DNA from: Bacteroidota bacterium
GTDB lineage: Bacteria > Eisenbacteria > RBG-16-71-46 > SZUA-252
Reading direction: 5' to 3'
Length of the DNA: 64,000 bases
NCBI GenBank assembly: GCA_050257045.1
Contig: JBLMWD010000093.1
Coordinates: 21,242 to 85,241 of the forward strand
A model generated the notes under the pieces. That model saw only the letters and a list, made by a program, of their open reading frames with translations, was not told the DNA's origin and made no database searches. Shown one piece after another: positions 50,941 through 53,423 of the stretch. The position numbers were made by a program, and so were the translations under genes. Numbering within the stretch: the stretch's first letter is position 1; each line of letters begins with the position of its first letter.

Positions 50941-51618
50941 ATGCGCCGTTTCTCCCCCGGCGGGGGTCTCCTCGCCGTTCTCGCGCTCGCGTTCGCCGGA
51001 TCCGCCCGCGCCGGGACCATCGAAGGCTCGGTCACGCTCACGCCGGCCGATCTCTCCTTTCGCGGAGGGATGAAGCCGAACGCCTACGTCGGGCAGCTCA
51101 GCGGAAGCGCGATGCGCGCCGACGCGCCGGTTCCGTCCGACACGACGTACGGCGTCGCCTACGTCGCCGACGTCGGAACGGCCGGCGACGCAGAGCCGGA
51201 GCCGCTCCTCCTCGATCAGAAGGGACAGCGCTTCATCCCGCGGATCCTCGCGGTCGTCGCGGGCGAGGCGGTCGACTTCCGGAACAGCGACAACGTCTAC
51301 CACAACGTCTTCTCGTACTCGCCGCCCAAGCGCTTCGACCTGGGGCGTTATCCGCGAGGCCGCTCGAAGCGGCTCGTCTTTCCGAAGCCGGGGCTGATCC
51401 AGGTCTTCTGCGACATCCATTCCGACATGCGCGCCGACATCGTGGTGGTGCCGAGCCGGCGGTACGCGTACCTGAACGCGGACGGCCGCTTCCGGATCGA
51501 GGGCGTCCCCGCCGGCAAGCACACCCTCGTCGTCTGGCTGCCGCGCCGGGGCGAGCGGAGCGGCGAGGTCGAGGTGCCGTCGGCGTCACCCGCGGAATTC
51601 GTGCTGGGCGCCGAGTGA
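50941..51618 (+). CDS. Secreted cupredoxin (type-1 blue copper) domain protein
   Basis: This is the C-terminal 225 aa of the track ORF, starting at ATG 50941 (MRRFSPGGGLLAVLALAFAGSARA signal peptide). It carries a plastocyanin-like ligand set, HNVF ... CDIHSDM (His, Cys-x2-His-x2-Met). Its stop overlaps the downstream histidine kinase GTG as GTGA. Confidence 0.6.
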   Translation: MRRFSPGGGLLAVLALAFAGSARAGTIEGSVTLTPADLSFRGGMKPNAYVGQLSGSAMRADAPVPSDTTYGVAYVADVGTAGDAEPEPLLLDQKGQRFIPRILAVVAGEAVDFRNSDNVYHNVFSYSPPKRFDLGRYPRGRSKRLVFPKPGLIQVFCDIHSDMRADIVVVPSRRYAYLNADGRFRIEGVPAGKHTLVVWLPRRGERSGEVEVPSASPAEFVLGAE

Positions 51619-53423
51619 GACCGCGCGTCTCGCTCCTCCTCAAGATCGCGGTCCTCACGTCGCTCCCCGTCCTCGGGATCATGATGGCGGCGCTCCTCGT
51701 CGTGAACCATCGGCTCGCCGGCGAGGTGAACCGGAACGTGACCGCCGACCTCGGGCGTGCTGCCATGGCGTTCGAGAGCCAGATGGAGCGCGAGGCGGAG
51801 AATCTCGGGCGCGTCGGGGTGGTCGTCGCGCGCGATCCCAAGTTCTTCGCCCTCCTCACCCTCCCTCGGGGCGATCGGAAGGACGCCGACTTCCACGCGA
51901 CGCTCATCGGCGTGGCGCGCGACTTCCAGCGCGACGCCGATGCGCCGCTCTTCGACGTGACCGACGAGCATGGAGTCGTTCTCGCGCGGGCCGGGCGCCC
52001 CGACGCGGCCGGAGAAGACCGGTCCCGATGGCTGCTCGTCCGCGAGGCGCTCGCCGGGCGGGCCGCCCGCGGGTTCTTCGTCGAGGGGGACCGCGCCTAC
52101 CGCGTGGCGGTGGTTCCGATCGTGGTCGAAGGAGCGCTCGTGGGGACGCTCATGCTCGGCCGGACCATCGACGCCCCCCTGGCCGAGCGCCTCGAGGCGA
52201 CCACCCGGAGCGACGTGGTCTTCGTCGTGAACGGGAGGGCCGACATCCATCCCGCGATCCCGCCGTCGCTCGCCGCGCGCCTCGCGGCCCTTCCGCCCGG
52301 CTCCGACGTCGAGCGCGTGGTGGACGAGGGCCACCGGTTCCTCGCGCTGCGCGGCGTCCTCCAGGGCCCGACCTCCGGGGGGCAGATCGCCTTCGTGCTC
52401 GTCCGATCCCTCGACCAGGAGACCGCCGTGCTCGGCCGGATCGGGCGGGAGCTCACGATCGCGGGCGGGCTCCTCATCGTGGCCGCGCTCCTGATCGGCT
52501 TCCTCGTCTCGAGCGGCGTGACCCGGCCGGTGCGGCGGATCGTGGATGCCGCGAACGCGATGCGTGCCGGGGACTACGACCTTCCACTGGACGTGCGCTC
52601 GAACGACGAGATGGGGATGCTCGCGTCGCACTTCGAGGCGATGCGCGAGGCCCAGCGCCACGAGATCGAGCGCCTCGAGGAGATCGACCGGATGAAGTCG
52701 GACTTCATCGCGATCGCCTCGCACGAGATCCTGACGCCCGTGACTACGATAAGGGCGTACGCCGATCTCATGGGCGAGGCCTCGGGGGATGCGTCGGAGC
52801 TGCAGCGCGAGGGCTTCCGCGCGATCCGGGACGCGGCCGGCTCGCTCACCCGGATCGCGCGCGACCTGACCAACATGTCGCTAATCGACCGCCGGCGGCT
52901 TCCGCTCCGACTCGCGCCGGCCGACATCGCGATCATCGCGGAGGAGGTGGCCGTCCACACGATCGGGCTCGCGGCGGAGCGGCGCCAGACCGTCACGATC
53001 GCGATCGAGCCCGAGCTGCTCCACCCCGGCGTCGACGCGGGCTACCTGAAGCAGGCGGCCACCAACATCGCGCAGAACGCGGTGCGGTTCACGCGCGACG
53101 GCGGCTCGATCGAGATCGGCGCCCGGCGGAGGGGCGAGACGTTCGAGCTCTACGTGGCGGACTCGGGAATCGGGATCTCGAAGGAGGACTTCGGACGGAT
53201 CTTCGCGAAGATCGTCGAGTTGAAAGACGTGAACCTCCACTCCTCGGGCACCACCGAGTTCAACTCCTCCGGCCTCGGCCTGGGGCTCTCCATCGCCCGC
53301 GGCATCGTGGAGGCGCACGGCGGGGAGATCCGGGTGGAGAGCGAGCTGGGGCGCGGAAGCACGTTCACGATCGTGATCCCCGCCGCCCAGGCTCAGGCCG
53401 GTGAGCTACGGCTAGCGAGCTGA
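51615..53423 (+). CDS. Sensor histidine kinase (TM, periplasmic sensor, HAMP, DHp/HisKA and HATPase domains), with no adjacent response regulator
   Basis: Track ORF of 602 aa with an N-terminal TM segment, a periplasmic domain of about 250 aa, a second TM plus HAMP, an H-box IAIASHEILTPVTTIRAY, an N-box NIAQNAVRFT and G-boxes DSGIGI / GLGLGLSIARG. Confidence 0.85.
   Translation: MRPRVSLLLKIAVLTSLPVLGIMMAALLVVNHRLAGEVNRNVTADLGRAAMAFESQMEREAENLGRVGVVVARDPKFFALLTLPRGDRKDADFHATLIGVARDFQRDADAPLFDVTDEHGVVLARAGRPDAAGEDRSRWLLVREALAGRAARGFFVEGDRAYRVAVVPIVVEGALVGTLMLGRTIDAPLAERLEATTRSDVVFVVNGRADIHPAIPPSLAARLAALPPGSDVERVVDEGHRFLALRGVLQGPTSGGQIAFVLVRSLDQETAVLGRIGRELTIAGGLLIVAALLIGFLVSSGVTRPVRRIVDAANAMRAGDYDLPLDVRSNDEMGMLASHFEAMREAQRHEIERLEEIDRMKSDFIAIASHEILTPVTTIRAYADLMGEASGDASELQREGFRAIRDAAGSLTRIARDLTNMSLIDRRRLPLRLAPADIAIIAEEVAVHTIGLAAERRQTVTIAIEPELLHPGVDAGYLKQAATNIAQNAVRFTRDGGSIEIGARRRGETFELYVADSGIGISKEDFGRIFAKIVELKDVNLHSSGTTEFNSSGLGLGLSIARGIVEAHGGEIRVESELGRGSTFTIVIPAAQAQAGELRLAS

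Follow-up and report, generated by a model that had tools for sequence, protein, structure and literature searches.

Among the sensor histidine kinases with a periplasmic partner are LuxQ and TorS, which are paired with LuxP and TorT, respectively, and in the HbpS–SenS–SenR system of Streptomyces redox stress is sensed by an extracytoplasmic haem protein, under whose control the neighbouring kinase autophosphorylates. CpxP for CpxA (PMC4160245), QseG for QseE (PMC12691602, PMC6075780) and PlrP for PlrS (PMC13001219) are periplasmic accessory proteins whose genes adjoin those of the kinases; a kinase and its adjacently encoded periplasmic partner are also found in the DbfQ–DbfS pair (bioRxiv 10.1101/2025.03.24.645060), and solute-binding proteins are known to serve as kinase ligands (review PMC8050422). 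The locus described here lies in a 64,000-nucleotide (nt) stretch of contig JBLMWD010000093.1 (70% GC), which is referred to as the window, and consists of the gene of a secreted cupredoxin followed, with an overlap of 4 nt, by the gene of a membrane-bound sensor histidine kinase. Judged from its sequence, this would be a two-component sensor assisted by an accessory protein, the accessory being a blue-copper protein.

As in the systems listed above, the gene of a secreted protein stands beside that of a membrane kinase with a PDC/Cache-type periplasmic domain, and one expects the signal to reach the kinase through this partner or to be modulated by it; as in LuxPQ, the regulator gene does not adjoin the pair. 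The partner is different: it is neither a solute-binding protein nor a lipoprotein nor a small helical protein, but a cupredoxin with an additional transthyretin-like sandwich; it also serves cyclases, often together with an outer-membrane barrel, and the interaction is one that we infer. For an accessory protein that is redox-active, HbpS–SenS–SenR comes closest as a mechanistic precedent; it differs in having haem and not copper, an unrelated fold, a Gram-positive host and an adjacent regulator. The kinases CusS, CopS and CztS are also membrane HAMP-HisKA kinases, and they respond to periplasmic copper; they bind the metal directly via a small periplasmic domain, whereas the window kinase has a dCache_3-like domain of ~250 residues without conserved metal ligands and scores below the cut-off of the heavy-metal kinase model TIGR01386. 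The nearest characterised cluster in gene content is the copper-responsive curA operon of Myxococcus xanthus, with a Cupredoxin_1 protein, the multicopper oxidase CuoA, the kinase CorS and the sigma-54 regulator CorR (PMC3707914). When compared by gene content alone, the two loci share a Cupredoxin_1 protein and a periplasm-sensing HAMP kinase in one cluster, and the NtrC-type regulator is shared with the acidobacterial relatives of the window pair. In the curA operon, however, the cupredoxin is His-rich, the multicopper oxidase gene is placed between cupredoxin and corS, and a copper ATPase and resistance genes are present; the window has none of these, and no regulator.

The features of the two genes are as follows.

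50932..50936, plus strand: Shine-Dalgarno sequence AGGAG of the cupredoxin gene, read from the sequence
50941..51618, plus strand: gene of the secreted cupredoxin, 225 residues, from ATG 50941 to TGA 51616-51618
51301..51429, plus strand: codons of the type-1 copper ligands H121 (51301-03), C157 (51409-11), H160 (51418-20) and M163 (51427-29)
51615..51618, plus strand: GTGA overlap of the kinase GTG start with the cupredoxin TGA stop, read from the sequence
51615..53423, plus strand: gene of the sensor histidine kinase, 602 residues, from GTG 51615 to TGA 53421-53423
51705..52451, plus strand: periplasmic sensor domain, residues 31-279, dCache_3-like, between the transmembrane helices TM1 and TM2 (Pfam, hydropathy)
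52509..53387, plus strand: cytoplasmic transmitter of HAMP, HisKA and HATPase_c domains (Pfam, motif positions)

The cupredoxin protein has a two-domain layout. A Sec-type signal peptide (residues 1-24, cleaved between ...ARA and GT) is followed by the cupredoxin domain (~residues 88-170) and by a β-sandwich of the CarboxypepD_reg/transthyretin-like type (~residues 171-222), the latter being seen as a sub-threshold Pfam match to CarboxypepD_reg (E 2e-5) on the C-terminal 55 residues. Export via the Tat pathway is judged unlikely, because the N-terminal RR is not conserved among the homologues. In the PDB sequence search, residues 78-169 align to plastocyanins and to the cupredoxin at the C-terminus of Thermus NirK (6HBE), and H121, C157 and H160 coincide with the copper ligands of these proteins. 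The AlphaFold model, calculated from 23 sequences, has a predicted local distance difference test (pLDDT) score of 80 and a predicted template modelling (pTM) score of 0.76, with the loop of residues 43-65 as its sole disordered region. The cupredoxin domain of this model is a Greek-key β-sandwich, for which Foldseek ranks amicyanin, NirK and plastocyanin at the top (E about 2e-7), with pseudoazurin also among the nearest folds. The ligands follow the His...Cys-x(n)-His-x(n)-Met order at the canonical positions, and the ligand loop, C-D-I-H-S-D-M, has the spacing C-x2-H-x2-M, which we take to be that of amicyanin. When compared with these classical type-1 proteins, the window protein differs in its extra β-sandwich, in its conserved disordered loop and in having a sensor, not a redox enzyme, as genomic partner.

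The preliminary description of this DNA had recognised a secreted protein with a type-1 copper site, which agrees with the signal peptide, the fold and the four ligands, and it had named ligand conservation in the orthologues as one of the points on which the proposal might fall. The ligands H121, C157, H160 and M163 are invariant in 121 of 121 homologues, down to 42% identity, and the H-C-H-M set is kept in 116 of the 135 distant representatives of 50%-identity clusters (86%). Binding of copper by the cupredoxin at a type-1 site is predicted. Other invariant positions are N115, D117, an F-D-L-G-x-Y motif and Y49/G51 of the disordered loop. The first β-strand, G-T-I-E-G-S-V, resembles strand 1 of the CarboxypepD_reg sandwich, and because of this resemblance, together with the Pfam profile coordinates (17-74 of 82) and the secondary structure of the model, the cupredoxin may be nested inside a CarboxypepD_reg domain. 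Among the distant representatives the axial Met is replaced by Glu in P0173, P0220, P0227, P0246, P0256, P0257 and P0262, a ligand His by Asp in P0141, P0190, P0232, P0255 and P0266, and the Cys by Ser in P0226, P0263 and P0275; the axial Glu and the H-C-D-M sets are unusual for cupredoxins and could reflect tuning or abolition of the type-1 site.

The overlap of the cupredoxin end with the kinase GTG had been placed correctly to the base in the preliminary description. GTG 51615 is the first in-frame start past the upstream stop, and the next ATGs, at +62/+65, lie within TM1; it is the sole workable start, because only this codon keeps the N-terminus shared with the homologues and TM1 (PRVSLLLKIAVLTSLP...). 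Hydropathy places the transmembrane helices at ~residues 8-30 and ~280-302; the periplasmic domain between them spans ~250 residues, in agreement with the size given before, and the Pfam search of this region, proposed at that time, finds dCache_3 (PF14827) at residues 41-209, between the two helices, with 33.5 bits versus a gathering score of 25.7. On the cytoplasmic side HAMP (residues 299-346), HisKA (residues 360-425, 43.7 bits) and HATPase_c (residues 475-591, 82.2 bits) are all above their Pfam gathering scores, the phospho-acceptor His370 is encoded at 52722-52724, and there are intact N, G1 and G2 boxes. No Cys, His or Met is conserved in the sensor domain. This domain has no match in the PDB sequence search, and its AlphaFold model, obtained from 6 sequences, is unusable (pLDDT 41), with a low-confidence order of secondary-structure elements that is compatible with a double PAS-like fold. 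A homologue search with the sensor domain alone returned 5 proteins, low-complexity words swamping the index, and the alignments of this domain were therefore rebuilt from the fetched loci.

The kinase belongs to no NCBIfam equivalog. Its best partial scores are for WalK (165), PnpS (161) and PhoR (143), then for MtrB and BaeS, with AtoS at 90, and its H-box, SHEILTPV, does not fit the HE[IV][KR]NPL pattern of AtoS/ZraS/NtrB-type kinases. By these sequence comparisons its transmitter core resembles that of kinases with OmpR-type partners.

The cupredoxin belongs to a large family. It comprises ~6000 proteins in the 90%-identity collection, where members are named 'plastocyanin' by the Joint Genome Institute and are nameless elsewhere, and a profile search of the 50%-identity library gives 1,687 representatives at E<=1e-30, a number that rises to 9,860 at E<=1e-10 and to 24,198 at E<=1e-3. 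A homologue search that was started from an acidobacterial family member has no cultured organism among its matches. Relatives were sampled by a scan of one genome per GTDB species, in which at least 565 encoding stretches were confirmed, so that at least 565 species genomes encode the cupredoxin; 80 loci were kept. These are from Candidatus Eisenbacteria, Acidobacteriota/Vicinamibacteria, Gemmatimonadota/Longimicrobium, Ignavibacteria, Zixibacteria, Krumholzibacteriota and Udaeobacter, the closest relatives among them being Candidatus Eisenbacteria (54-74% identity); labels such as Limnocylindrales and Omnitrophota on near-identical sequences are possible binning artefacts.

The pairing of the two genes is conserved throughout this sample. 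When considering the 76 loci with at least 2 kb of downstream sequence, the sensor gene starts between -7 and +52 nt from the cupredoxin stop in 71, and among the 70 distinct loci the start is between -7 and +5 nt in 61, with the 4-nt overlap itself in 29. Four of the five exceptions retain a kinase (L027 and L079, in which a barrel gene is inserted, L068 and L082); in the fifth, L047, the barrel gene alone is downstream, with no kinase found. The flanking genes are unrelated between lineages, and the sensor protein is the sole universally conserved neighbour of the cupredoxin, just as the accessory genes of the systems introduced above stand beside their sensor genes. The proposal of a joint function for the two proteins is thus strongly reinforced by a pairing that extends across several phyla and, as described below, across three output modules. 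No published account of this cassette was found in full-text searches of the literature.

Tandem duplications of the cupredoxin/sandwich unit are seen in P0126, P0131-P0133, P0145, P0235, P0259 and P0271; one family member has at least 5 cupredoxin domains, and many sandwich copies are present in the giant proteins P0130 (2430 residues) and P0143 (6305 residues). Such tandem-repeat relatives pass PF00127, as P0126 does with 34.7 bits. Fusions of the cupredoxin with the sensor or the barrel were also considered, and the longer members proved to be tandem repeats of this unit only.

The proteins encoded beside the cupredoxin fall into three output classes.

54 distinct loci: PhoR/WalK-like kinase, as in the window, with no adjacent regulator
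11 distinct loci, Acidobacteriota: AtoS/ZraS-like kinase, H-box HEVRNPL, followed by a regulator of REC, Sigma54_activat and HTH_8 domains
5 distinct loci, Gemmatimonadota and others: HAMP and class III adenylate/guanylate cyclase

The periplasmic domains of these classes are homologous over their full length, as shown by hhalign comparison of the N-terminal 310 residues (probabilities of 99.9, 99.0 and 98.7% for the three pairs); the domain of the window class is matched to that of the AtoS-like kinases at 99.9% and to that of the cyclases at 99.0%. Since the sensor domain is homologous across the three classes, the constant partner of the cupredoxin is the periplasmic sensor domain and not the output. 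The acidobacterial kinases are of another type than the window kinase, with NCBIfam scores of 173 for AtoS and 157 for ZraS in L056. An NtrC-type regulator gene directly follows the kinase gene in L032, L045, L049, L050, L055-57, L064, L065, L077, L081, L082, L086 and L087; the acidobacterial order is outer-membrane protein, cupredoxin, kinase and NtrC regulator, and then a conserved sigma-54 promoter. This promoter, GGCACG-N4-CTTGC, is present in 6 of 6 aligned loci (L056, L081, L082, L086, L087 and L049), with TTACG/CGTAA repeats upstream of it and with the genes of a CuA-type small cupredoxin (COX2/Cupredoxin_1; motif CSEYCGSGHKKM), a DUF5777 barrel and a dihaem cytochrome c downstream. These downstream genes are the probable regulon of the acidobacterial cassette, and they lend some support to a redox or copper theme.

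Most cassettes also have a gene for a porin-like barrel of ~400 residues, with a signal peptide and a C-terminal F/Y, which has weak matches only (OMP_b-brl, BBP2, Porin_O_P). It is placed before the cupredoxin gene, between the cupredoxin and sensor genes or after the kinase gene, in loci including L005, L012-L021, L024, L025, L027, L031-L039 and L082, in the last of these at -1271..-66 from the cupredoxin start. The identity of a Cyc2-like fused cytochrome-porin is ruled out for this protein by the absence of a CxxCH motif. The window pair is a reduced, two-gene version of this widespread and uncharacterised signalling cassette of three or four genes. In L021, L034, L051 and L085, past the cassette of cupredoxin, kinase and barrel genes and at ~+3.6 to +7.7 kb from the cupredoxin start, genes for pdxH, a LytS-like kinase, a LytTR regulator and a major facilitator superfamily transporter are found; the receiver domain in these four loci is that of the LytS-like/LytTR pair and not of the cupredoxin-linked kinase.

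The reading that we favour, at a probability of roughly 55%, is that the cupredoxin is a periplasmic co-sensor for the kinase, which would report copper occupancy or redox state. In the proposed mechanism the 225-residue protein would be exported to the periplasm, where its cupredoxin domain would hold one copper ion in a His-Cys-His-Met site. It would be produced together with the kinase by translational coupling and would most likely dock, by direct physical contact, onto the dCache_3-like periplasmic domain. The balance of kinase and phosphatase activities of the HAMP-HisKA-HATPase_c transmitter would then be set by the copper site, either through its oxidation state or through its being loaded with copper or empty, and the transmitter would signal to a response regulator whose gene is elsewhere in the genome. 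The proposal draws together the gene structure, the fold, the ligand conservation, the conserved adjacency and coupling, and the reuse of one sensor domain with three outputs; the sensor domain, in which no metal- or redox-active residue is conserved, is also in agreement with it. The recurrence of the pair in hundreds of uncultured species suggests an undescribed form of extracytoplasmic copper/redox sensing.

Several observations weigh against the co-sensor proposal. The window protein is below the gathering threshold of both Pfam cupredoxin models used, with 20.0 bits versus 27 for Cupredoxin_1 (PF13473; E 7e-4) and 12.6 bits versus 21.2 for Copper-bind (PF00127; E 0.19). Because a ligand is altered in ~14% of the distant representatives (Met to Glu/Gln/Ser, His160 to Asp, and Cys to Ser in 3 cases), some family members may not bind type-1 copper. 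The barrel gene that accompanies most relatives is missing beside the window copy and its nearest relatives. An autoregulated operon with the cupredoxin simply as its first regulated product would also be expected to show the conserved adjacency. Finally, neither a receiver domain nor a sigma-54 AAA+ module is present in the whole 64 kb, the tblastn queries being CheY, PhoB, the central domain of NtrC and two regulators of the NtrC type taken from related loci; a receiver search with CheY alone was too insensitive, missing the regulator of L082, and was redone with the NtrC-type queries from the loci. The sole weak match to the regulator queries is the AAA+ module of Lon. The kinase is thus an orphan within the window, as had been described, and an adjacent response regulator is also absent from all 54 distinct loci of its PhoR/WalK-like class.

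Of the other explanations, the one that survives best extends the signalling pathway downstream. The preliminary description suggested that the partner of the kinase could be an NtrC-type sigma-54 activator encoded elsewhere, which would tie the pair to the sigma-54 promoter and the tiny peptide genes downstream. In this reading the kinase would phosphorylate the unlinked activator, which would fire the promoter and so control two genes of GGKAGW-ending peptides. The elements in question are the following.

53531..53543, plus strand: dyad GTCAAGGATTGAC, candidate activator-binding site, ~110 nt upstream of the promoter (clade alignment)
53647..53662, plus strand: sigma-54-type promoter TGGCACGACGGCTGCT (pattern match and clade conservation)
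53738-53823 and 53897-53982, plus strand: two tiny genes for hydrophobic peptides of 28 residues ending in GGGKAGW

The promoter, TTGCAAATGGCACG-N4-CTGCT, lies 224 nt downstream of the kinase gene and is the single match of the window to TGGCAC-N5-TTGCW (with one mismatch), which is not significant when taken alone, at least one match being present in 43 of 100 shuffles. It gains weight from the Eisenbacteria clade of the window, where each of the 17 loci has the form TTGCAAATGGCA[CT]G-N4-CTGCT 150-260 nt past the kinase stop, directly after the kinase gene; of only 30 pattern matches in the 1.3 Mb of fetched loci that were scanned, 17 are those of the clade. A GTCA-N-TGAC dyad is conserved upstream, at the same position in the clade alignment, and past the promoter most clade loci have one tiny gene, or two, encoding hydrophobic peptides of 20-28 residues. 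At least 11 acidobacterial cassettes have the NtrC-type regulator after the kinase gene, and then the GGCACG-N4-CTTGC promoter. A sigma-54 promoter after signalling genes in two distant lineages makes the NtrC link attractive.

This part of the preliminary description is partly supported, by the promoter, the dyad and the acidobacterial regulators; no NtrC-type regulator (REC, Sigma54_activat, HTH_8) that could partner the kinase, and no other activator, is found within the 64 kb of the window. The core of the kinase is of the WalK/PhoR/BaeS type and not of the AtoS/ZraS/NtrB type; WalK, PnpS, PhoR, MtrB and BaeS pair with OmpR-family regulators, and AtoS and ZraS with NtrC-type regulators. 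This argument is weak, because kinases of the GlrK/QseE type, with similar H-boxes, do partner NtrC-type regulators. There are also many sigma-54 activators that have no receiver domain. As for the peptides, they are indeed present downstream of the pair, ending in GGKAGW, in 12 clade loci (L002-L007, L009-L011, L014, L015 and L018) and nowhere else in the sample; beside the pairs sampled outside this Eisenbacteria clade neither such peptides nor a promoter of the window type are found. Since peptides and promoter are confined to one clade with a syntenic block (M16 peptidase, methyltransferase, pair, peptides, Lon), their linkage to the pair may be plain synteny. On balance the NtrC link is possible, with the odds leaning against it. 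We would call speculative, and somewhat more doubtful, the wider proposal of a widespread class in which a blue-copper protein, often together with a barrel, would be the primary sensor for a dCache_3-like receptor on kinases and cyclases, and which in the Eisenbacteria clade would act through an unlinked sigma-54 activator that switches on two GGKAGW membrane peptides next to lon.

It is also conceivable, if unlikely, that the pair is a copper-homeostasis system, in which the kinase itself would sense periplasmic copper in the manner of CusS/CopS or of CorS of Myxococcus, and the cupredoxin would be a copper-binding or detoxifying product of the operon. The curA operon, which responds to copper, is a precedent (PMC3707914), the conserved type-1 ligands fit, and the kinase has a partial score of 108.8 bits with TIGR01386. 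The cut-off of this model is 292.55 bits, however, so that the kinase is not a member, and its sensor domain is without the conserved His, Met or Cys that direct metal binding calls for. Nor does the cupredoxin contain a copper-trapping region rich in His/Met; genes for a copper ATPase, a multicopper oxidase, CusCBA or CopCD are absent from the vicinity of the pair in the window and in most loci, and the cyclase outputs would be unusual for metal-resistance operons.

Quite improbable in our view is a role as monitor of the envelope or outer membrane, in which the two-domain protein would be a structural adaptor from the barrel to the sensor, comparable to RcsF/OMP/IgaA or QseG/QseE, and the copper site would be structural or irrelevant. 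Points that agree with this are the barrel gene in the cassettes of most lineages, the loss of copper ligands in some family members, and the window neighbours, of which the DD-carboxypeptidase, the PDZ protein, the M16 peptidase and Lon would fit such a function; domains of the CarboxypepD_reg type are, in general, frequent among outer-membrane-associated proteins. But the window copy has no adjacent barrel gene, and the ligands, invariant in the closest homologues and kept in most distant ones, are so strongly conserved that the metal site is expected to matter. The least probable explanation is that the cupredoxin serves a respiratory or oxidative pathway as an ordinary electron carrier of the periplasm, its gene being co-transcribed with that of a kinase regulating this pathway and the two proteins making no contact: its nearest folds are indeed the carriers amicyanin, plastocyanin and pseudoazurin, and CuA-like and cytochrome c genes are nearby in acidobacterial loci, but no oxidase, reductase or dehydrogenase partner is conserved beside the pair, either in the window or across most lineages, the only universal neighbour is a sensor protein whose sensor domain is constant while its output varies, the start-stop overlap suggests co-production with a membrane sensor of low abundance, which is atypical of an abundant shuttle, and the extra β-sandwich and the loop with the invariant Y49/G51 are absent from classical carriers.

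In the window the cupredoxin gene is divergent from a gene for a TRAM/RumA-type RNA methyltransferase (49405..50865, minus strand). Other genes nearby encode a DD-carboxypeptidase, a PDZ protein, a β-helix protein, an M16 peptidase and Lon, and point to envelope and proteolysis functions; no copper-homeostasis or respiratory gene is among the window neighbours of the pair. A scan for sigma-70 promoters and terminators gave no match and is uninformative in DNA of 70% GC from a non-model phylum. Between the second peptide gene and the start of Lon (~54241) there is a non-coding element of ~190 nt (54036-54225), whose conservation in 14 clade loci far exceeds that of the neighbouring proteins. 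Three helices are predicted for it, 5 base pairs show compensatory changes, and no family of Rfam is matched; a structured leader of lon and a small RNA are possible identities. Further away, at 21000-38000, the window has a gene cluster of the replication-origin type, with rnpA, yidC, mnmE, mnmG, parA and parB on the minus strand and dnaA (28751..), dnaN, recF, gyrB and gyrA on the plus strand, these names resting on N-terminal sequences and gene order only.

The input signals of most bacterial kinases are unknown, and no description exists, to our knowledge, of a blue-copper protein acting as a sensor subunit. If the pairing reflects simple co-regulation, the locus is an ordinary orphan kinase operon only. 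If the co-sensor proposal is true, the pair would be a new bacterial means of reading periplasmic redox potential or copper supply, and this reading would be coupled to transcription or to cyclic-nucleotide signalling. Phyla of soil and sediment for which no genetic model exists commonly carry the cassette, and the proposal would give a testable function to a large orphan family annotated as 'plastocyanin' and to an unnamed family of outer-membrane barrels.

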